Positions 5,455 to 56,633 of a stretch of 64,000 nt of DNA are shown one piece after another. The stretch is from an uncultured virus (IMG/VR IMGVR_UViG_3300037067_018977) (taxonomy: Duplodnaviria > Heunggongvirae > Uroviricota > Caudoviricetes), in IMG/VR virus record IMGVR_UViG_3300037067_018977; one strand, given 5' to 3'. Numbering within the stretch: position 1 is the first letter of the stretch; each line of letters begins with the position of its first letter. The notes beneath the pieces were generated by a model that saw only the letters and a program-made list of their open reading frames with translations, did not search any database and was not told where the DNA came from. The position numbers were made by a program, and so were the translations under genes.

Positions 5455-6208
5455 CCTGACCGAGCAAGAACTGCTTGCAGAGACGTCCGCTTTCTGGCAG
5501 GCGGCCGCTCGGCGCGAGCAGAGCTGTCAACGCTGTCCCGAGCACGGCGGCGCATGCGCAGCAGAACTCGGTTGCTTGCCGCCAGGGAGCTACCTCGCGT
5601 GGATCGAGCGTCGCCCGCGTGCTCAAGCTTGCCAGCGTTGGACCGAGCACGAGCTACGCCAGCGTCTCGCTGAAGCCGGTGTGCCATTTCGACTGCAAGG
5701 CTGCCGCGCCGACACGTTTCAGGTGGATACTGACCAGCAACATCAGGCCCATCTCGAAGTCGGCGAGCTGGTCAAGCTGTGGACCAAATCCAGGGAGCTA
5801 CATTCCGGTAGCCCATGGATCGTTCTGTGCGGCTCGCACGGCACAGGCAAGAGTCACCTGCTCGCCGCCGCGCTGCGCACCGTGCGCCGCCTGCGCCCGG
5901 CGTTTCACGTTTGGTATCAGGACGCGACCGAGCTGGCCTCGTTGCTCCAAAACTTTTTCGACAACCGAGACACCACGCCGGATCCCATGGAGCGTCTGGC
6001 GGAGACCAGTCTGCTCGCATTCGACAACGTCGATCCTGGGAGTTGGAAACCGTGGCTTCAAAAGTCCGTCGAGGAGCTGCTCGTGCAGCGTTGGAATCGC
6101 GGGCTCGCTACCTTGTTGGCGACCCACCAAACTCCTGACGCACTGCTGCAAGCACTCAGGTCTCTCACAGAGCTACGTTCGGGGGCAGCGTGGTGCACGC
6201 TGGGATGA
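5303..6208 (+). CDS. DnaC/IstB-like AAA+ helicase loader
   Basis: Walker A GSHGTGKS, Walker B LLAFDN, N-terminal Cys cluster; start could be 5285. Confidence 0.85.
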   Translation: METMGSELTKLAQALQDTRQEDHHHLRVVVEQAGGAAAWLNSLGLGGHPADLTEQELLAETSAFWQAAARREQSCQRCPEHGGACAAELGCLPPGSYLAWIERRPRAQACQRWTEHELRQRLAEAGVPFRLQGCRADTFQVDTDQQHQAHLEVGELVKLWTKSRELHSGSPWIVLCGSHGTGKSHLLAAALRTVRRLRPAFHVWYQDATELASLLQNFFDNRDTTPDPMERLAETSLLAFDNVDPGSWKPWLQKSVEELLVQRWNRGLATLLATHQTPDALLQALRSLTELRSGAAWCTLG

Positions 6209-8883
6209 GCGTGCAAAGTAGGCAACCCCAGCGCTCGCGGGAGGGTCGTGTTCCCCCGCATGATCTCGAAGCCGAAGCGGCGGTGCTGTCGAGCTGCATG
6301 CTGGACAAGGCAGCGTTGGACACTGTGCGGGGCTTGATCGCGCCCGAGCACTGCTACGCCGATGCGAATCGCCGCATCCTCGAAGCGGTCTTTGCGTTGG
6401 ACGATGCGGGTCACCCGGTCGACGTTGTCACCGTGGCCACCAAGCTACGCGAGCAGAACCGCCTCGAACAGAGCGGCGGCACGGTGTACCTCGCGTCGAT
6501 CACCGATGCTACTCCAGCCGTCGCGCACGTCGATCACCACGCCAAGACGGTGCGAGATCTGTGGCGCGTGCGCCAAGCCATCGCGCTGCACCAGACCAAG
6601 GCAGCGGAGGGATTCTTCGGGATCGAGTCCGTGCAAGAGTGGCTGGAGCAGACCGAGACCGCACTTAGCGGGATCGGCTCGGTCGGCTACGGCACGGAGC
6701 TGGAGGGCATCGGGACGATCGCAGCGCGCTACTACCAGTCGATGGTGGCCGCGAAGCAACGTGGTCAGGCGATTCTGGGTACTGCCACGGGATTCACGGA
6801 TCTCGACGAGCGCACCGGTGGGCTATTTGACGGCGATCTGACCATCGTGGCGGCTCGCCCCGGCTTGGGAAAGACGTCGCTAGCCACCGCGCTCGCCCGC
6901 AACGTCGCCGGCTCAGGCGAAGGCGTTGCCTTCTTCTCTCTGGAGATGCCGCGTGACCAGATCGCGATGCGCATGCTGTGTGCGGAGGAATATTTGGACG
7001 CGAACCGCATTCGTCGCGGTCAGCTTTCTGCCGATGACTGGAGTCGACTCATGCGTGGCACTACCACGCTCGCGAGCCTACCCATCTGGGTGGACGACAC
7101 GCCTGCGATCACCGTTCAGGAACTGCGCGCGAAGGTGCGCCGGTTGCAGCGTCAGATCTTGCAAGCGCCCACCGAGCACTGTCGGAAGCTCGGGCTCGTC
7201 GCGGTCGACTACCTGCAGCTCATGAAGGGGATCCGAGAGAAGGGCGACACACGCGAGCGCGAGGTGGCTTCCCTGAGTCAGGGGCTCAAGAATTTGGCCA
7301 AGCAGCTGCGCCTGCCAGTGGTTGCGCTCTCCCAGCTCAACCGCTCGGTGGAGAAGAAGGGCAGCGACAAGCGACCTCAGCTCAGTGATCTGCGGGAATG
7401 TATCCCCGGTGACGCGCGGGTATTGCTCGCGAACGGCCAGCGCGTGCGCATGGACACGCTGGTGGGCTCCGAGCGCTCCGTCGTCTGCTTGGACCCGGGT
7501 GCACTGAAGCTCACGGCGCGCCGTGCGCGTTTCGTGGAGGCGGGGCAGAAGGAAGTCTGGCGAGTGCGGCTACGCAGTGGCCGCAGCTTCCGCGCTTCGT
7601 TCGATCATCCGGTGCTCACGCTCCAGGGATGGAAACCCCTGAACCAGCTCCACCACCACGAAGAGATTGCGGTGCCGCGCGGATATCGGCTTACCGGTAC
7701 GCGCGTGATGGCTCCGGAGTTGGCGCGCCTGCTGGGCTACCTGGTTAGCAATGGATCGTACAAGCGTCTACGCTCAGTCGGTGTGACGCTGCCCGAGCCG
7801 GAGCTGAGGCAGGACGCGCAAACCATCGCACAGACGTATCTGGGCGTGCGTTGCCGCGAGCACAAACACTGGTCCGGCACGCACAGCATCGAGTTGACGA
7901 ACGTGGCCCGCGGCCCAGGAGGCAACGCAGCAATCAACTGGCTTCGGGAGCTGGGAATCCACGGCCACGCTACCCCCGAAAAGCGCACCCCGGAGATCCT
8001 GTTTGGAGCCGACAGCGTTGTCCTCGGTCAATACATTGCAGGCCTCTACGCGGGCGACGGCAGCGTGGTGCGACGGCGGCGCGGCGGATGGACCATCAAG
8101 TATGTTTCGACGAGCATGGAGTTACTCAGGGAGATTCAACACCTGCTTCTGCGACTCGGTGTGATGGCGGTGCTCGGTAAACCCACGCGCCACACCAAAT
8201 CCACGGTGGACATCGCGGAACTGCGGATCTCCGACAAAGCGAACGTGCTGGCTTTCGCTCGCGCCGTACCCATCCCAGGAAAAAAAGGGAAGCGACTCCA
8301 GCGTGCGGCCGCGGAGTCCCAGGGGCGCACTAACGAGCACCATGACCGGCTGCCCAACGTAGTAGAACGCGCGCTCCGGGTGTTCATGCTGGCGCGCGGT
8401 ATTCGCTACCGGGACGCGGGCTACATTTGTCAGCGCAAACGCATTAACCGGCAAGCGCTGGGCGCGCTCGCTCATAAACTCACCGCGCTCGGTCACGACG
8501 GGGAAGAGACCCGCCACTGGGCAATGCTTGCAGAAAGCGACGTGCTCTGGGACGCGGTGGAGTCGGTTCAGCGGGAAGGCGTCGAGCCGGTCTACGATGC
8601 AACCGTGGACGCCGCAGCAAACTTTATTGTGGACGATGTGATCGTGCACAACTCGGGAGCCATTGAAAACGATGCCGACTCGGTCTGGCTGCTCTACCGC
8701 GACAGCTACTATCACCGCGATGCAGGTCCCGAGGTGGAGCTGGACGTGGCCAAACAGCGCAACGGACCCACCGGCGTGGTCAAGCTGATGTTCCGGGGGA
8801 AAAACATGCGCTACGACAACGCCGAGCTTGCGGACGACTACGGCGTGGCCACCGGCGCCAACGAATGGGACGCCAATGTCTGA
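6205..8883 (+). CDS. dnaB: replicative DNA helicase DnaB containing an intein
   Basis: PPHDLEAE, AARPGLGKT, FSLEM, VDYLQLM, LSQLNR, RPQLSDLRE/SGAIENDAD, KQRNGPTG motifs. Confidence 0.97.
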   Translation: MSVQSRQPQRSREGRVPPHDLEAEAAVLSSCMLDKAALDTVRGLIAPEHCYADANRRILEAVFALDDAGHPVDVVTVATKLREQNRLEQSGGTVYLASITDATPAVAHVDHHAKTVRDLWRVRQAIALHQTKAAEGFFGIESVQEWLEQTETALSGIGSVGYGTELEGIGTIAARYYQSMVAAKQRGQAILGTATGFTDLDERTGGLFDGDLTIVAARPGLGKTSLATALARNVAGSGEGVAFFSLEMPRDQIAMRMLCAEEYLDANRIRRGQLSADDWSRLMRGTTTLASLPIWVDDTPAITVQELRAKVRRLQRQILQAPTEHCRKLGLVAVDYLQLMKGIREKGDTREREVASLSQGLKNLAKQLRLPVVALSQLNRSVEKKGSDKRPQLSDLRECIPGDARVLLANGQRVRMDTLVGSERSVVCLDPGALKLTARRARFVEAGQKEVWRVRLRSGRSFRASFDHPVLTLQGWKPLNQLHHHEEIAVPRGYRLTGTRVMAPELARLLGYLVSNGSYKRLRSVGVTLPEPELRQDAQTIAQTYLGVRCREHKHWSGTHSIELTNVARGPGGNAAINWLRELGIHGHATPEKRTPEILFGADSVVLGQYIAGLYAGDGSVVRRRRGGWTIKYVSTSMELLREIQHLLLRLGVMAVLGKPTRHTKSTVDIAELRISDKANVLAFARAVPIPGKKGKRLQRAAAESQGRTNEHHDRLPNVVERALRVFMLARGIRYRDAGYICQRKRINRQALGALAHKLTALGHDGEETRHWAMLAESDVLWDAVESVQREGVEPVYDATVDAAANFIVDDVIVHNSGAIENDADSVWLLYRDSYYHRDAGPEVELDVAKQRNGPTGVVKLMFRGKNMRYDNAELADDYGVATGANEWDANV
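7399..8652 (+). mobile_element. intein (418 aa) with LAGLIDADG homing endonuclease domain
   Basis: Begins CIPGDARV, block B ASFDHPVL, LLGYLVSNG and IAGLYAGDG motifs, ends VIVHN followed by Ser. Confidence 0.95.
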
Positions 8884-21490: not shown

Positions 21491-22733
21491 ATGCGAGCGT
21501 ATGGAAAGAAAGGCCGAGCAGCGCCGCCCGCGGAGCTGACGCGACGCCAGCGCGAAGCGTTGCTCGCCTATGCAGCGTACCACGGGCGCAACTGGAAGGC
21601 CGAGCTAGCCGGAGACTGGACCCGCGCTGCCGCCAACGTGGGCGGGGAGTACCGGGCGGAGCTGCAGCAGATCCGCAACACGCTCGGGCCGGCGTGGCTG
21701 AAGAAAGTCACGCTGGCGGAGATCCAGAGCGCGGCGCCCGGTGCGACCGAAAGCCTGGAGGACGCCATTCTGGAGCACGCGCGCGATCCGGTCGGCACGT
21801 TGCGACCGGGCATGAAGTTCGGGGACATGACGATCACCCAGGTGGGTACGCACACGGTGGTGTACCAGCGCCCCGGCGGCTGGCGCGGCTCGGTGCAGAT
21901 CCCGTTCCTCGATCCGGTCAGCGGTGTCGAGCTTCCGTCGCATCGGAGAGCGCTGGCGGAATTTGGGATGGAAAAGAATGCAGCGGACCCTCGCCGCCCA
22001 GTGCAGGAAGAGGTCCCCGGTACGACCCCGATCGCCAACGCGAGCGAGGTGGACTTCTTCGAAGACAACACCTTCGTGCGCGAGGGTCCGCTCTGGCTCT
22101 TCAGCTTCGGAGCCTACGGAGCGACCCACNNNNNNNNNNGTCTACGTCTGGGCGGACGGCATGGAGAGCGGGTTCGAGACGGCGGTGGAGTGGCTGGACG
22201 ATAACGCCCCTGGCCTGCTCGTGATGGTCGACGAGAACGACTACCGCCGTGCGGCGGAAGATCTCGGCAAGGTCTGGGATCCGAGCGAGCCGGACGACGA
22301 GATCATGCAAGCCGCCGAAGCGGACATGACGATGATCGGCCACACCACGCTCCAGCACGGCAACGCGGTGGCGAGCTGGGAGTGGCACGTGCGCGAGGTG
22401 AAGAAGGGCTCGCCCGAGTGGAACCAAGTGGTCGAGCGCTCGCGCGAGGAGAGCGGAGAGTTCGAAGAGAACGCTTCGAAATCGCAAAGCGTGGTGTTGG
22501 CGGCGCTTCGTGGGAAGAGCGCAAAAGCGGGGGCATTTCACACCGTCGGGGGCATCGTGTACTCGTACAACTTGCCCATCGCGGATCTGAGAAACCCAGA
22601 GGGACCCTTCTACGTGCTGGACAAGATTGCCTCACCCAGCGTCACAACGAGCAAGCACATTGGTTTCGTCCGAACGTGGCTGGCGCACATCAAGTCCTGG
22701 CTGCCCATCGAGACGGTGAGCGCAATCGGTTGA
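21491..22733 (+). CDS. multi-module hypothetical protein spanning an assembly gap
   Basis: Two ORF-track frames join across the N run at about 22130-22139. Confidence 0.6.
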
Positions 22734-29313: not shown

Positions 29314-31365
29314 ATGGCACGAGTCGTTGGCAAAGCGTTCAAGATCACGAAGCAAGCGGCGCGGAATTACGGCTACGCCACGCCGAATTCTCCGCCGCCT
29401 GTGAGTGCGATTGCAGCCGTCAACGGCCGCGGAGCGTACGCGAAGCGTTCGGCTCGCGCCGCGATGCAGGGGTTGTCGCGCCCCGAGCGCAGCGCCCACG
29501 CGAAGAATCTCACCGCCGCCCAGCGCCGCGCTTTCGCGGATCGCATGGCGGCCGCCCGCGCAGCCAAGAGCGCGCGGCCAAGTAGTTCCCGAGCTGGTCG
29601 GAGCATGGTGCGCCCGAGCGGCTCAGGTCGGATCCCGGCGCGTACCCGCCCGGCGTCACCAGCAGCAACCGGAGGAAGCATGAAACGGAACACCTCGGCT
29701 GCGCAGCGACGGGCTGCGCTGGCCAACCTGAAGAAGGCGCGCTCTGCGCTCCGCGGAGGCCGCAAGAGCATGGCCTCGAATCGCAAGCGCCCGGGCCGCA
29801 AGACCCAGCGCAAGAACGCGCGGCGCAAGAGCATGCGTCGGAACGGCAAGCAGACGGCGGCCCAGCGGCGCGCGTCGCTCGCCAACCTGCGCAAGGCGCG
29901 CATGAAGCGGAACCGGAAGAGCACCCGCAAGGGCATGCGCAAGAACCGGCGTCGCAAGAGCATGCGTCGGAACGGCAAGCAGACGGCGGCCCAGCGGCGC
30001 GCGTCGCTCGCCAACCTGCGCAAGGCGCGCATGAAGCGAAACCGGAAGTCCACCCGCAAGGGCATGCGCAAGAACCGACGGCGCAAGAGCATGCGTCGGA
30101 ACGGCAAGCAGACGGCCGCGCAGCGGCGCGCGTCGCTCGCCAACCTGCGCAAGGCGCGCATGAAGCGGAACCGGAAAAGCAGCCGCAAGGGCATGCGCAA
30201 GAACCGCCGCAAGAGCATGCGTCGGAACGGCAAGCAGACGGCGGCGCAGCGGCGCGCGTCGCTCGCCAACCTGCGCAAGGCGCGCATGAAGAAGAACCGC
30301 AAGGGCGGGCGCAAGATGCGGCGCAACACCTGGCCGGGCGAACGCGCCCGTCATCGCAAGGCGGCCAAGAAGGGCTGGGCGAAGCGCGGGAAGCGGTACA
30401 GCGCAAACCGTCGCCGCGGCGGCAAGCTGTTCAAGAAGAACGGCTTCGTGCAGGGCATGGTCACCGTCTTCAAGGCCGGTGGGCTGACCCTGGCTGGCTT
30501 CGTGGCGCACAAGGCGCTCACGAAGGTCTTCTGCGACTTCGTGTGCGACAAGCTGTTCGGGGCCCCGGCCACGCCGGTCGCGCCGCCGACGCCTCCGGCC
30601 ACCAGCGGGCTCGACGCGCTGCAGCCCTACAAGGGGCTGATCGCGGGAGCGGTGGTCACCGGCGTGGGCATCTACGCGACCGACAAGCTCGTCAAGGACG
30701 TCCGGACGAAGATGTTCCTGACCACGGGCATGGCGGTGAGCTTCCTGCACACCTTGCTCGTGACCGCGCTCGCCAAGGCGGCTCCGCAGGCCGTCGACTA
30801 CCTGGCGGGCTACGAGGACGGCACGGCGGCGCGCCTGTCGGCCATGTACGGCCTCGGTGCTTCGATCCTGCCGCGCTACGCGCCGGTCAACGGTTTCGGT
30901 GAGTACCTCACCGCGACCAACGGCATGGGCGAGTACTTCTCCGAGCCCATGAACGGACTCGGTGAGTACTTCTCCGAGCCCATGAGCGGGCTGGGTGCCT
31001 ACACGGGCAACCCGGACCTCTACCAGGCGGCCGCCGGCTACGGCACGGTCGACTACGCGAACGGCAACCACATCGATCCCAGCTCCGATCTCGATCGCGA
31101 GCTGACGATCGTCGAGGCGGCCGCGGGCGTGGGTCAGCTGCCGGCGTACGAAGCCGCGGCCGGGTTCGGGCGCGTGCAGTCGTACGAGGCGGCTGCCGGC
31201 ATGGGTGCGATCAACACCGTGCCGCGCGCCGACACGTGGATCCCGGGCACCACCGACCCGCAGCTCTGGGCCGGCGTGCGTGGCGTCACCAAGCCGCAGT
31301 CGTCCACGGCCATGGTGCCGGCGGGCATCCTGCAGACCGACGGCGGAGGCGGCGTCTTCGGCTGA
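29314..31365 (+). CDS. Arg/Lys-rich (protamine-like) membrane-linked core protein
   Basis: Extremely basic repeats, hydrophobic segments, then G[FML]GEY repeats; alternative in-frame start at 29680 with GGAGG SD. Confidence 0.85.
   Translation: MARVVGKAFKITKQAARNYGYATPNSPPPVSAIAAVNGRGAYAKRSARAAMQGLSRPERSAHAKNLTAAQRRAFADRMAAARAAKSARPSSSRAGRSMVRPSGSGRIPARTRPASPAATGGSMKRNTSAAQRRAALANLKKARSALRGGRKSMASNRKRPGRKTQRKNARRKSMRRNGKQTAAQRRASLANLRKARMKRNRKSTRKGMRKNRRRKSMRRNGKQTAAQRRASLANLRKARMKRNRKSTRKGMRKNRRRKSMRRNGKQTAAQRRASLANLRKARMKRNRKSSRKGMRKNRRKSMRRNGKQTAAQRRASLANLRKARMKKNRKGGRKMRRNTWPGERARHRKAAKKGWAKRGKRYSANRRRGGKLFKKNGFVQGMVTVFKAGGLTLAGFVAHKALTKVFCDFVCDKLFGAPATPVAPPTPPATSGLDALQPYKGLIAGAVVTGVGIYATDKLVKDVRTKMFLTTGMAVSFLHTLLVTALAKAAPQAVDYLAGYEDGTAARLSAMYGLGASILPRYAPVNGFGEYLTATNGMGEYFSEPMNGLGEYFSEPMSGLGAYTGNPDLYQAAAGYGTVDYANGNHIDPSSDLDRELTIVEAAAGVGQLPAYEAAAGFGRVQSYEAAAGMGAINTVPRADTWIPGTTDPQLWAGVRGVTKPQSSTAMVPAGILQTDGGGGVFG
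29824..30300 (+). repeat. 129-bp (43-aa) tandem repeat, about 3.7 copies
   Basis: CGCAAGAGCATGCGTCGGAACGGCAAGCAGACGG starts at 29824, 29953, 30082 and 30208. Confidence 0.95.
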
Positions 31366-31551: not shown

Positions 31552-33873
31552 ATGGCCAAAGTCGTTTCGATCCGCGAGCGTGTTCATCAGCCTCAGAGAG
31601 GGGCCTGATCGGAGCAATCCGATCAGCAAACCGGGTGAATTCGGGGAAACCTACCGTGGGAGCGCGAGCTGCTACGGCAATCCCGAGCCAAGCCGACCGA
31701 AGGGTATTGAAGTAGGTCGGAAGGTGTAGAGGCCAAGCTGTGACGAACCCGTCGAATAAACAGCTCTTGAGCGCCCGGCATCCGCAGCCGAGGCAGTGGT
31801 TTGCCACCACTGTGGCAGCGGATGATGAGATGGTCCGATCCCCCGTGAAAGCGGGAGACAAATCGTTCTACGACACGCTCGTTCGCACTGCGGGCTTGAC
31901 GCCCGGAGCGCTGACCGACACCACGTCGCTCTTCACGAGCAACGGGGCACGCACGGAAGCCACCACCAACCTGATCAACGGCAGCACGCTGCCGTCGGAT
32001 CAGAGCCACGTGGTGCTCGCCCTGCGCGTCTTCGCGTGGTTCCGCAACCCGATTCTCCGCATCGCAGGCGGAGACGCTGGCGAAGTCGCCCTGAACGGCG
32101 ACTACGGTACGGTGGCCCCCTGGCTTGCGGGTGGTCCGGGTGCGGGTCAAGCGCCCGGCCAGATCCAGGACTACTACCGCCTGATCTGGCAGACCGAGGA
32201 ACAGTTGCACTGGTCAACTAAGGCCCCCTGCGTGCGTGAGCGCGCAGGTGCACTGGGTGAATTCGGGGAAACCCCTGCTGCGATCTGCAGCGAGGCAATC
32301 CCGAGCCAAGCCGACGGAAGCGAACACGCGCGCAAGCACGTGTGTACGTCGGAAGGTGTAGAGACTAGCTGTCGAGGATTCGCGTCCGATAAGGCAGCCA
32401 CGAGCGCCCAGCGTCTGCTCCGAGCAGATGAAGAGATAGTCCATGCCTGCGTGAAAGCGCAGGAAACACATGCTTTCGGTACGGGTCTCAAGAACTCCAT
32501 CGACAACATGCCCACGTGGTCAAACAAGGCCCCCGGCGCGCGTGAGTGCGCCGGTGTACCGGGTGAATTCGGGGAAACCCCTGCTGCATCGTGCAGCGAG
32601 GCAATCCCGAGCCAAGCCGACGGAAGCGAACACGCTCACAGCGTGTGTACGTCGGAAGGTGTAGAGACTAGCTGCCGAGGATTCGCGTCCGATAAGGCAG
32701 CCACGAGCGCCCGGCGACTGCAGAGAAGCAGCCGAAGAGATAGTCCGTGCCTGTGCGAAAGCACGGGACCAGCACGACTTCCCGGCCGGCGGCGGGATCA
32801 GCGGAGACAACGGTGCCTCCACGGATCTCATCCACTGGCAGAACTCGGGTACCGATGGGCATTCCGGAATCCTCCGCCTCAACTGAGGGGCCTTCGCAGC
32901 GTGAGCTGCGTCGAACAACGGGGTGAATTCGGGGAACGGCCTGCACGTGTCCACGTGCGACCCAATCCCGAGCGAAGCCACCAGCGAGCTTTTCGTGCTG
33001 GTGGAACGTGTAGAGAGCAGGGAGTGAGCTGGCTCAGCAATAAGCTCCCCACGAGCGCCCCGCATCTCCGAACCACGGAGATGGTGATGTGCTCCACGCC
33101 CATGCGAAAGCATGGGGATACGTGCGCGCGCGCGGTACTGATCCCGCCTCGGCAGAACATCCTCTGCGCGGCGAAGATCTTCGCGCTTCCGGACGGTGGA
33201 CAAGCGACGGTGTTCGGGACGACTCAGGGGAGCCGCAACATGCTCTCTCTGAAGGACAACCTGAACGCGGTCGACGCGGTGCAGAAGGTCAAAGGAAGGC
33301 CCTGCCACGGAGTGATCCGTGAGCAGCAACTGGGTGAATTCGGGGAAACCCCTGCTGCATCGTGCAGCGAGGCAATCCCGAGCCAAGCCGACGGAAGCGA
33401 ACACGCTCACAGTGTGTGTACGTCGGAAGGTGTAGAGACTAGCTGCCGAGGATTCGCGTCCGATAAAGCAGCCACGAGCGCCCGGCACCTGCTCGCAACA
33501 GGTGAAGATATAGTCCAACCCCCGTCGAAAGCCGGGACCAGGTTGCATCACCTTCACGTTCGACGGTCAACGCAGAGCTGCACTCGCAGCATGAGGCCGT
33601 CACGAAACCCACCTCAAACGGGGAAACCCTTCCAGGGCAATCCCGTGCCGAGCGCCAACGACGAGTTGGCGAAGGGCGTAGAGACTTCCGCAAGAGCCCA
33701 CCAGATGGTGCTGGGGCTCGAAGCGGTCAGCGGAGCAGGGGCAGAACCTGCGCTGCTGAACGGTGGGCGGATCCAGGCTGTGGCAACCACCACGGCGTCG
33801 AGGATCCGATGGGATAGTCCGAACCTGCCGGCAACGGCAGAACCATCCGCTCTTCAGCCGCGACGTGCAGTGA
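31552..33873 (+). CDS. putative major capsid protein (single jelly-roll-like), 250 aa, spliced: join(31552-31593,31866-32214,32473-32520,32777-32879,33125-33289,33546-33567,33850-33873)
   Basis: SD AGGAGAG; exons total 753 nt and give a stop-free frame MAKVVSIRERVHQP/FYDTL...LHW/SFGTG...PTW/YFPAGGG...ILR/LARAV...QK/VITFTFDG/LFSRDVQ*. Capsid identity is inferred from position and beta-rich composition. Confidence 0.85.
31594..31865 (+). ncRNA. group I intron 1 (272 nt)
   Basis: P1 GCCU|C:GGGGC with U-G pair; P GTGAATTCGGGGAAAC; Q CAATCCCGAGC; P7 GGCCA/TGGTC; P9.0 GAT/ATC; terminal G. Confidence 0.92.
32215..32472 (+). ncRNA. group I intron 2 (258 nt)
   Basis: P1 GGU|C:GGCC; R GTAGAGACTA; S AAGAGATAGTCC; P9.0 ATG/CAT; terminal G. 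Confidence 0.93.
32521..32776 (+). ncRNA. group I intron 3 (256 nt)
   Basis: Same core as intron 2; P9.0 GTG/CAC; terminal G. Confidence 0.93.
32880..33124 (+). ncRNA. group I intron 4 (245 nt)
   Basis: P1 GCCU|C:GGGGC; P7 covariant GAGCA/TGCTC; P3 CGGGG/CCCCG; P9.0 ACG/CGT. Confidence 0.92.
33290..33545 (+). ncRNA. group I intron 5 (256 nt)
   Basis: Canonical S element AAGATATAGTCC; core nearly identical to intron 3; P9.0 AAC/GTT. Confidence 0.93.
33568..33849 (+). ncRNA. group I intron 6 (282 nt, divergent)
   Basis: P1 GACGGU|C:GGCCGUC; CAAACGGGGAAAC and CAATCCCGTGCC; GTAGAGACTT / GGGATAGTCC; P3 CCCACC/GGTGGG. Confidence 0.88.
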
Positions 33874-34005
33874 GCACGCCAGCATCCGGAGGGCCGGCCG
33901 CTTCGTGCAGCCGGTCCTTCGGGGCTGCCCTTCTCGCTGCCTGACAGAACTCCAGCGGTACGGCTGCCCTTCAGCCGGAACTCGTTTTTCACGAGGTACA
34001 AGACC

Positions 34006-34953
34006 ATGCCCCAGATCGATCTCAACGCCCTGATGCAGTCCGCGGGCTACGCGGTGAAGCAGAGCCGCGATGCGATGGCGCTCGCGCAGTCGATGGCGAA
34101 CGAGCATGCCGCGATGCGCGGCGAAATCGGACGCCTCGCCCAGAACNNNNNNNNNNTCAGTCGCGTGCAGGCGCAACGCGGCGCCGAACCGCCGGACATC
34201 CAGCGCATCGAGAACATCCCCGGTCGGCGCATCCCGTTCGACCTCCTGGTGGACATCCCGATCGACGCGCAGACCACCAGCGTGCAGCAAGGCACGATCA
34301 CGATCAGCCAGGAAGGTCCGTTCGTGGCGGTGGCCCGCTACGCGACGTTCCTGAGCGCGTTCAGCTACCAGGTCCGGAACCCGGCCGACGGCTCGATCGC
34401 GACGTTCAACGGGCGGAGCTTCGGCCGCTACCGACCGATCCACTCGGCCTGGGACCTGAACGACGGCCAGCCGTACACGCAGCTGATGATGGCCGCGCCG
34501 CCGCCCGGCACGGGCGCGCCGCACGTCATCTCGCCGGCCAACGCCTCGCCCTTCCGGACGATGCAGCCGGACTTCCGCATCAAGTTCGAGAACGCGGGCA
34601 GTAGCTTCCCCCGCTCGAACATCGAGGTGCCGTCCAGCTTCTGGACCACGCAGATCAACGAGCCGTTCAAGCTCGGCGCGCTGGACTTCTTCGAGCGCGG
34701 CGAGGTGCTCACGCTCAAGGTGCTGCCGCTTCACCCGAACAACCCCGCCTTCGGCAACCTCTCGGCGTACGGCGCCCCGAACCCCGCCTATCCGTTCCTG
34801 GACTCGGGCTGGGACGCGGTCGAGGGGATCAACGACCAGAACAACCCCGCTGCCGGAGATCTCGATCCGGTCACGCGCGTCCAGAACGGCATCCTCACCA
34901 TCGGCTTCCACGGCTACCGCATCGTGCAGCCGGCGGGGGCAGGGCCGTACTGA
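34006..34953 (+). CDS. putative second capsid (jelly-roll-like) protein
   Basis: Beta-rich, ends ILTIGFHGYRIV, follows the split gene; contains an N gap. Confidence 0.65.
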   Translation: MPQIDLNALMQSAGYAVKQSRDAMALAQSMANEHAAMRGEIGRLAQNXXXXSRVQAQRGAEPPDIQRIENIPGRRIPFDLLVDIPIDAQTTSVQQGTITISQEGPFVAVARYATFLSAFSYQVRNPADGSIATFNGRSFGRYRPIHSAWDLNDGQPYTQLMMAAPPPGTGAPHVISPANASPFRTMQPDFRIKFENAGSSFPRSNIEVPSSFWTTQINEPFKLGALDFFERGEVLTLKVLPLHPNNPAFGNLSAYGAPNPAYPFLDSGWDAVEGINDQNNPAAGDLDPVTRVQNGILTIGFHGYRIVQPAGAGPY

Positions 34954-56321: not shown

Positions 56322-56633
56322 AAGTCAGCGACTACCAGGACTTTTTCGACGTGCCCGTGGCTGTGCAACTTCGGCAGCCATCCATGATCGTGGACAACGA
56401 CGGGGAGCCCCGAAACCGGATGCAACATGGCAACCGGGAATATGGCGTGCCGCAGCCCGTGGTCATGCAGGGCAATCCAGCCGCTCAGCTCATGCTGGTG
56501 GGAGTCCTGGTTCCTTCCAAGAGCGAGGAGCTGTTGACGTTCCGGAGCAAAGGCGAGCGCGGCGCGGTGATCGTGACCACGCTGCTGCCCGATCAGATCN
56601 NNNNNNNNNGCTCATCACCTCGCCGGGGAACTG

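Follow-up and report, generated by a model that had tools for sequence, protein, structure and literature searches.

The presence of several group I introns in one phage virion-protein gene has a precedent in orf142 of phage Twort, whose introns were reportedly described by Landthaler and Shub in 1999. In the available portions of later accounts, orf142 is a tail-tube gene subject to exon skipping, and two of its three group I introns are highly similar (PMC10136302, PMC11878797). Capsid genes can be interrupted as well: the accessible text describes a major capsid protein (MCP) gene in five fragments in crAss-like Zeta/Delta phages (PMC7886860) and a faustovirus E12 capsid gene with 13 exons and five group I introns (PMC6247863). 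As to the ways in which such introns spread or change, the parts consulted of the respective papers propose reverse splicing for the group I introns of fungal ribosomal DNA (rDNA) (PMC1299323), report for T4-like phages a collaborative or trans homing in which an endonuclease from another locus can spread an intron devoid of an open reading frame (ORF) and the flanks are co-converted (PMC2988022, PMC2790892), and describe gene conversion that makes mosaics of the endonuclease-bearing and endonuclease-lacking forms of the yeast mitochondrial omega intron (PMC4059233). The arrival of ORF-less group I introns at new sites is an old open question, and the support for reverse splicing is circumstantial according to the available text of a review (PMC3984707). 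Here, we consider a stretch of 64,000 nucleotides (hereafter the window) from an uncultured virus of the Caudoviricetes (IMG/VR record IMGVR_UViG_3300037067_018977), in which one gene, probably coding for the MCP, is split by six group I introns, I1 to I6. Introns I3 and I5 carry nearly identical cores inside dissimilar outer helices. This mosaic is probably the product of a gene conversion between older paralogous introns, in which the core of I3, from one strand of helix P3 to the other (P3′), was recently copied over that of I5.

The split gene lies on the plus strand (31552-33873) and is made of seven exons (753 nt) and six introns, which account for 1569 of its 2322 nt (68%). In-silico removal of the introns restores a single open frame of 250 codons. 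The same gene is unbroken in ten viral contigs (63-179 kb), with 58-86% identity across all 250 residues, and every exon/intron boundary is thereby fixed since these intronless orthologs align over the whole length. From 5′ to 3′, the gene is composed of exon 1 (31552-31593, 42 nt), I1 (31594-31865, 272 nt, phase 0, with a stop codon at its nt 13), exon 2 (31866-32214, 349 nt), I2 (32215-32472, 258 nt, phase 1), exon 3 (32473-32520, 48 nt), I3 (32521-32776, 256 nt, phase 1), exon 4 (32777-32879, 103 nt), I4 (32880-33124, 245 nt, phase 2), exon 5 (33125-33289, 165 nt), I5 (33290-33545, 256 nt, phase 2), exon 6 (33546-33567, 22 nt), I6 (33568-33849, 282 nt, phase 0) and exon 7 (33850-33873, 24 nt including the stop codon); exons 3 and 4 are further delimited by the contigs discussed below. 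An earlier note on this DNA, made from the letters alone, described the insertion sites correctly: read directly at the boundaries, they are GGU for I2, I3, I5 and I6 and GCCU for I1 and I4, all six introns start with CA (and end in G), and none contains an insert or has room for an endonuclease ORF. In the spliced gene, GGT occurs 21 times and GCCT 5 times, and introns occupy 4 and 2 of these words, respectively. The CA start is a family trait that is also found in relatives' introns at other sites.

The shared core tract of I3 (32561-32715) runs from the 5′ strand of P3 through P4, P5, P6, P7 and P7.x to the 3′ strand of P3, and is identical to that of I5 (33332-33486) at 153 of 155 nt, the two differences being 32642C/33413T and 32696G/33467A. 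The core of I2 (32255-32409) is close to both, with 147 of 156 columns identical to I3 and 145 of 156 to I5. Outside the core, I3 and I5 match at 25 of 44 columns in the 5′ part and at 43 of 64 in the 3′ part, about 40 of the 108 outer columns being different. The I2/I3 pair is more even, with matches at 32 of 40 columns in the 5′ part and 46 of 64 in the 3′ part (26 of 104 outer columns differ). Helices P1, P2, P8, P9.0 and P9 differ among I2, I3 and I5 with their pairing preserved. P2, P8 and P9 do not contact the exons. From the near-identical cores, the earlier note had inferred a recent spread of these introns to new sites in the gene. For I3 and I5, a recent copy of the whole intron is contradicted, since P2, P8 and P9, which do not depend on the target, should still match after copying yet are far diverged on both flanks of the identical core.

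Several measures set the I3/I5 core apart from its surroundings. The longest I3/I5 run with at most two differences covers 87 of the 162 columns variable among I1-I5; none of 20000 shuffles of these variable columns, which leave real differences in constraint in place, reached that length (maximum 53). Among the columns at which two members of the trio agree, I2=I3 prevails over I3=I5 in the 5′ part (19 vs 4) and in the 3′ part (11 vs 7), and I3=I5 prevails in the core (11 vs 2; Fisher p 0.0006). Trees of 13 introns, from which the unalignable I6 type was excluded, are also in conflict, the core and outer-part trees rejecting each other (approximately unbiased (AU) test, p < 1e-4). Ten pairs of same-site orthologs give a scale for the comparison: nine pairs with flanks 47-80% alike have cores that are 76-84% alike, and one near-identical pair reaches 96%. 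The I3/I5 pair combines flanks at 57 and 67% with a core at 99%. Between I3 and I5, even the smallest core/flank ratios encountered (0.20-0.25) predict 11-14 differences in the core, against two observed (P <= 0.001). A second apparent core swap was found in a relative's locus, L031, in which the outer parts of an intron inserted at nt 36 of the gene surround an endonuclease-bearing core of the nt-43 family; the core of L031 rejects a grouping with that of locus L057 (AU p 0.04). A possible third swap concerns an ORF-less nt-43 intron (L079:23-285), whose 5′ part is 87% like that of L098 and whose core is 60% alike.

The direction of the copy, I3 into I5, is suggested by details of the pairing at the tract edge and within the core. 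The second pair of P3 is U-A in I2, C-G in I3 and a U·G wobble in I5 (U33331-G33484), and the edge of the tract adjoins that U. Both I5-specific core changes weaken a helix and for this reason look post-conversion. A related protein, P0010, includes the read-through translation of an intron from the I2/I3/I5 subfamily that is inserted elsewhere, at codon 56/57. In the 5′ helix region of that intron, 4 of 9 codons agree with I5, 2 with I2 and none with I3; the 3′ part is equally close to I2 and I5, and the core is diverged. The existence of an I5-like 5′ helix with a diverged core would make the outer part of I5 older than its present core.

A number of observations weigh against this account. 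The Fisher test gives p values of 0.04-0.2 when events are counted instead of columns. Neither forcing I2 and I3 together in the core tree (p 0.15) nor I3 and I5 together in the outer-part tree (p 0.16) is rejected, so that the single-clade tests for the trio are not significant; likewise, a grouping of L031 with the nt-43 introns in the outer parts is not rejected (p 0.09). The outer-part alignments are short and uncertain. The wobble in P3 also occurs in 2 of 8 relatives' introns. P0010 is known as a protein only: a DNA search found no counterpart, and searches based on it gave intronless genes or nothing. No other genome with a site-5 intron was found, and the unconverted I5 core is thus unseen; pattern scans of viral contigs for other DNA of the I2/I3/I5 subfamily returned only other families or chance matches, and I3 had no blastn match among 50,697 phage records. 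The co-conversion signal presented below comes from one contig that could be a strain chimera. Finally, an I1 ortholog from the metagenomic run X2 has remodelled P2 and P8 around a core that is still about 94% alike, which indicates that outer helices can change roughly four times faster than the core.

This last point lends itself to another explanation, in which I2, I3 and I5 would be old paralogs that never exchanged sequence and whose core is nearly invariant under purifying selection. The core is indeed more conserved than the outer parts in every comparison, that of the I1 ortholog is even more conserved than exon 2, and the clade tests leave room for such a history. The strong constraint seen in the I1 ortholog suffices for I2/I3 and I2/I5, which need no conversion; only I3/I5 stands out. 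There, however, the identity spans the P5 and P6 loops, which vary between I2 and I3 and in P0010, an I3-like piece from the RNA run X21 differs from the I3 of the window at 15 of 203 nt, more than I5 does, and the deficit of core differences persists at the most lenient core/flank ratio. Selection alone therefore seems an unlikely cause of the I3/I5 identity.

Somewhat less unlikely, and still improbable, is a recent transposition of the whole of I3 into site 5 by reverse splicing at GGU, reverse transcription and recombination, followed by a fast re-tuning of P1, P2, P8, P9.0 and P9, perhaps driven by selection against cross-intron misfolding and exon skipping. Close relatives in runs X2 and X20 possess I2 and I3 and lack I5, the outer helices can evolve fast, as the I1 ortholog illustrates, and P1 reads GGUC/GGCC in I2, I3 and I5, which thus have the guide GGCC in common. 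Sites 2, 3 and 5 share nothing beyond GGU, with 6-8 matches over 16 positions around the site against a background mode of 6, as is expected of reverse splicing in the available text on fungal introns (PMC1299323). The same counts led us to reject ectopic homing by a sequence-specific nuclease at look-alike sites, the sites being no more alike than random GGT pairs. Transposition would nonetheless require about 40 changed columns, many of them compensatory, in helices independent of the exons, with only two changes in a core that includes variable loops, and the intron read through by P0010, an independent one, combines an I5-like 5′ helix with another core. No reverse transcriptase was found among the 184 ORFs of the window or in 19 related virus records, and direct experimental evidence for the reverse-splicing pathway was lacking according to the accessible part of a review (PMC3984707).

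The near-identity could also have been created by the assembly, if one core had been used for both introns. Of 24 listed sequencing runs, four (X1, X2, X20 and X21) were used, all as contigs. In X1, which is possibly the window's own source, contigs 32380-32590, 32683-33361 and 33437-34084 match the window without any difference, and these unique contigs enter and leave a single shared unitig (32561-32695) at a depth of 15.9 vs 3-7 for the flanks. No alternative core was found in X1 at 85% likeness. In favor of an artefact, X1 may not be independent and offers contigs only, the C/T difference at 32642/33413 is collapsed there, and contig cover is absent over 31992-32379 (part of exon 2 and I2). 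I2 and I3 are present in X2 and X20 as well, and none of the three 10-N scaffold gaps of the window (22130-22139, 34147-34156 and 56600-56609) falls within the intron-bearing gene. The I3/I5 core repeat is real, and an assembly collapse, which the earlier note had named as one of the observations that would overturn its reading, was not borne out by the single core unitig, at about twice the flank depth and without alternative path; an artefact retains only a very slight probability.

The other runs document differences of intron occupancy. In X2 and X20, from other studies, relatives are represented by pieces of I1, I2 and I3, with I6 in addition in X2, and the contigs are joined across I4 and I5; sites 2 and 3 are thus occupied and I4 and I5 are absent in these relatives. 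The I2/I3 duplication would be older because both of its sites are occupied in the DNA of two other studies, and if any of these introns arose by true transposition of a whole intron within the gene, this pair is the most plausible case, albeit an old one. In the RNA run X21, a 669-nt contig is joined exactly at the boundaries of I2, I3 and I4, and the same run holds I1, I3 and I6 pieces. These junctions fit splicing in vivo; they may instead include an intronless strain. Compared with the window, the X21 contig has 49 differences over 349 nt of exon 2 and 2 over 151 nt of exons 3-4, a ratio of 0.09, and the same ratio is at least 0.54 in 85 of 85 intronless genes. This hints at a transfer of I2 and I3 from genome to genome as one DNA block, exons included, by co-conversion. 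In the available text, reverse splicing would not carry flanking exons along (PMC2504315).

Taken together, conversion between older paralogs would involve two layers. In the old one, small group I ribozymes with a P1 guide of 4-5 bp would have colonized many conserved positions of the capsid-like gene across large bacterial viruses, and the long residence of I2, I3 and I5, paralogs of one subfamily, would have let P2, P8, P9 and P9.0 diverge by compensatory change. In the recent one, non-crossover recombination between direct repeats would have replaced the core of I5, from P3 to P3′, with that of I3, in a tract bounded by the conserved P3 boxes, where homology ends. A crossover would instead delete exons 4 and 5, with a presumably lethal effect, and a tract reaching P1 would break the splice-site pairing, so that only core swaps should survive. 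The swap itself would be harmless because the outer helices pair within themselves. L2 reads GUGA in I2, I3 and I5 and P8 retains a CUG/CAG step in all three, which we take to be a tetraloop-receptor match that would make cores and shells interchangeable. ORF-less introns could then pass between genomes by DNA recombination with flanking exons, probably aided by the LAGLIDADG cuts of co-infecting relatives. Conversion homogenizes introns and creates no new sites. Of the two routes considered in the earlier note, gene conversion is accordingly retained as the cause of the near-identical cores and not as a means of mobility, since it only rewrites introns in place; reverse splicing is a fair candidate for the first arrival, the sites sharing only the 3-4 bases paired with the guide, although no reverse transcriptase was found.

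The intron-bearing gene appears as a hot spot across relatives. Introns interrupt it in 10 of 118 loci, none at sites 2-5; the loci come from three redundant collections, one of them a metagenome scan restricted to the best 80 of 250, which favors intronless genes, and four loci end at contig ends. At the DNA level, nine sites are known once the window and L138, L140 and L143 are added to these loci: codon 5 and nt 36, 42, 43, 391, 439, 542, 707 and 729, the motifs of the codon-5 site (L075) having been read by eye. About 12 further sites are suggested by mis-called proteins that run into intron-like peptide, giving about 21 in total. Conservation of the protein at these 21 positions is higher than in any of 20000 random draws (p 0.013 for the six of the window), a tendency that detection itself may favor. 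In the 19 related virus records, three of four group I matches lie in the capsid-like gene and the fourth in a tRNA cluster. Directly after the capsid-like gene of a sibling virus, L008:4787-5030 is a CRISPR-like array of five spacers that match that virus's own gene (0-2 mismatches); a large ORF follows (L008:5001-7398), and a second array lies at 7605-8120. The idea that introns shield the gene from this array was rejected: three of the five spacers span window sites 1, 3 and 5 by position, but only two match the window gene within two mismatches, and p is 0.1-0.3 once conservation is weighed.

Endonucleases are present among these relatives. Six distinct introns at nt 36 and nt 43 (L031, L083, L098, L099, L138 and L140) carry a LAGLIDADG-type insert of 461-470 nt between P3 and P4, with weak Pfam scores (E 0.0005-0.009) and a PHROG match at E 4e-14 for L098. 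Free-standing LAGLIDADG genes flank the capsid-like gene in L045, L049 and L057, the last of which also has two ORF-less introns. The earlier note's reading of a mobility without homing endonuclease is thus not established, as relatives have such genes both inside introns of the capsid-like gene and beside it, and these probably helped ORF-less introns to spread. One could go further and suppose that every intron of the window had a LAGLIDADG gene of its own between P3 and P4 on arrival, homed with it and later lost it precisely, I5 having come from another genome with a core recently related to I3. The position of the inserts, the P5 start and end in common with I2, I3 and I5, and the coexistence of ORF-less and ORF-bearing forms at nt 36 and nt 43 speak for such a history. 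However, the endonuclease-bearing cores are only 65-70% like those of I2, I3 and I5 and fall outside their group in the trees. Sites 2-6 yielded no intron with an endonuclease, no trace of a lost gene persists and the mosaic is unexplained, which makes this history very unlikely. In the slot after the gene where others have LAGLIDADG genes, three loci contain ORFs of 430-460 aa without clear Pfam match (L025:4313-5698, L133:921-2300 and L044:4331-5617), candidates for unrecognized endonucleases.

Within the window, the only endonuclease domain detected with Pfam among the 184 ORFs is a LAGLIDADG intein in the DnaB helicase gene (6190-8883, plus strand), which is expected to home to dnaB and not to the capsid-like gene; no reverse transcriptase was detected there. 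This search covers 64 kb, relatives' genomes being mostly 95-180 kb, and none of the 11 near-complete genomes among the 19 related records yielded a reverse transcriptase. Two routes appear about equally probable for the initial entry at a new site: reverse splicing directed by the guide, for which a reverse transcriptase would have to be borrowed, and illegitimate break repair, a DNA-based alternative that acts at microhomology in the available text (PMC2988022). A broader proposal is an ongoing, endonuclease-free radiation of group I ribozymes into some 20 positions of one viral mRNA through a guide of 3-4 bases, the introns being made of two separable modules, a shell proper to each site (P1, P2, P8, P9) and a catalytic core (P3-P7), the latter being swapped between sites and able to carry a homing endonuclease across. 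We regard it as a tentative possibility that is rather doubtful at present. If true, this locus would offer the densest series in nature on which to test transposition by reverse splicing.

Judged by their predicted structures, the six introns belong to a known kind, group I, and their arrangement is unusual. I1 (79.3 bits), I2 (63 bits) and I5 (65.8 bits) match Rfam family RF00028 over its full length and score above its gathering score, with I3 just below it (48.3 bits, E 5e-10); I4 and I6 have no match to RF00028. I4 has full P1-P9 pairing despite this miss and belongs to the broad family of I1-I3 and I5. I6 represents a different lineage with same-site orthologs in L057 and L103; P1, P3, P4, P5, P6 and P9 are present, 16 of 76 predicted pairs are changed on both sides among three orthologs, and a pattern scan of viral contigs for I6 gave no match. 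A model built from I1-I5 and one relative has six matches in the window, all within the split gene. The U·G pair at the 5′ splice site in P1 and the terminal G are found in all six introns. P3 and P7 pairing was recovered in each of I1-I5, as was a P9.0 with three of three Watson-Crick pairs in five different sequences; the P9 of I5 is taken from the Rfam alignment, a hairpin finder having given only 3 bp there. I1-I5 have an extra stem between P7 and P3′. To our knowledge, the classic IC3 tRNA introns have no such stem.

The reading frames of the introns deserve mention in their own right. For a ribosome entering from the upstream exon, I2, I3 and I5 present no early stop, unlike I1, I4 and I6, and I2 is open in frame throughout (86 codons). 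The frame of this read-through is the one used across the core by the relatives' endonuclease ORFs. An open frame of 734 codons (31740-33944, plus strand) extends from the end of I1 through I2-I6. It has no Pfam match, was rejected as a gene and is taken as a by-product of the stop-free core frame and GC bias.

The product of the split gene is probably a capsid protein, as judged from structure prediction. No sequence match was found in PHROG or PDB. A model of an ortholog, computed from 85 sequences (pLDDT 78.7), is a single jelly roll whose best structural match is the SPV1 capsid, a weak one under the tool's clear-match level (Foldseek E 0.067; VIA Z 6.2; rmsd 3.7 over 123 residues), and Atlas leads point to P2/P3 capsid families (0.75-0.77). 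The DnaB helicase, together with direct terminal repeats on relatives' contigs, points to a large virus of bacteria. Upstream of the split gene, a 683-aa protein (29314-31365, plus strand) contains repeats, four of them basic and 129 nt long (29796-30335) and three short ones near 30876-30982; it had no Pfam or PHROG match. Variants of the capsid-like protein were also seen: five proteins (P0159-P0163) are fused to the product of the next gene with Leu at the usual stop, possibly through stop read-through or recoding; three others (P0002, P0004 and P0029) have an insertion of 110-230 aa near residue 160 that is not intron-like; and L121 has two tandem paralogs of the gene (548-1315 and 1423-2244). 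As annotation pipelines mis-call such intron-split genes as fragments, the capsid marker of this virus group is hidden from them.

Near-identical cores at different sites are the usual evidence for transposition, and the present case calls for caution, as they can stem from conversion and are not proof of endonuclease-free mobility. If core swapping is general, intron trees based on the core only would misdate movement, and endonucleases could switch introns along with the core. Within 753 nt of coding sequence, the locus and its relatives bring together numerous insertion sites, several lineages of introns, forms with and without an ORF, and differences in occupancy among close relatives. In the literature searched, largely open-access, no account was found in which group I introns at distinct sites of a single phage gene had exchanged their cores by conversion.

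Set against the described systems, as far as the available parts of their accounts extend, the locus most resembles Twort orf142: in both, several group I introns, two of them highly similar, interrupt one phage gene for a virion protein (a probable one in the present case) and leave short exons (23 nt in Twort; 22 and 48 nt here) with a risk of exon skipping. It differs from orf142 by having six introns instead of three; moreover, the similar pair of Twort is of the IA2 type, and the accessible accounts mention neither a mosaic of core and flanks nor a survey of sites in multiple relatives. As in crAss-like phages and faustovirus, the hot spot for group I introns would be a capsid gene; in contrast, the crAss-like introns were found via their endonuclease domains, while all six introns here are ORF-less and lie within 2.3 kb, and faustovirus is a eukaryotic virus with a 17-kb gene. 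In fungal rDNA, too, related ORF-less introns occupy heterologous sites that share few 5′ exon bases (PMC1299323), although these belong to eukaryotic rRNA, with more than 90 sites spread over kilobases; the present introns lie in a bacterial virus, in a protein gene of 753 nt, and have endonuclease-bearing relatives in the vicinity. The free-standing LAGLIDADG genes that flank the capsid-like gene in three relatives recall the trans homing of T4-like phages; unlike there, no such gene was found in the window, and homing fills a fixed site and makes no new ones. Finally, the exchange that shapes the omega intron takes place between alleles at one site, whereas the exchange proposed here would have occurred between paralogs at different sites of one gene and would be bounded by the strands of P3.

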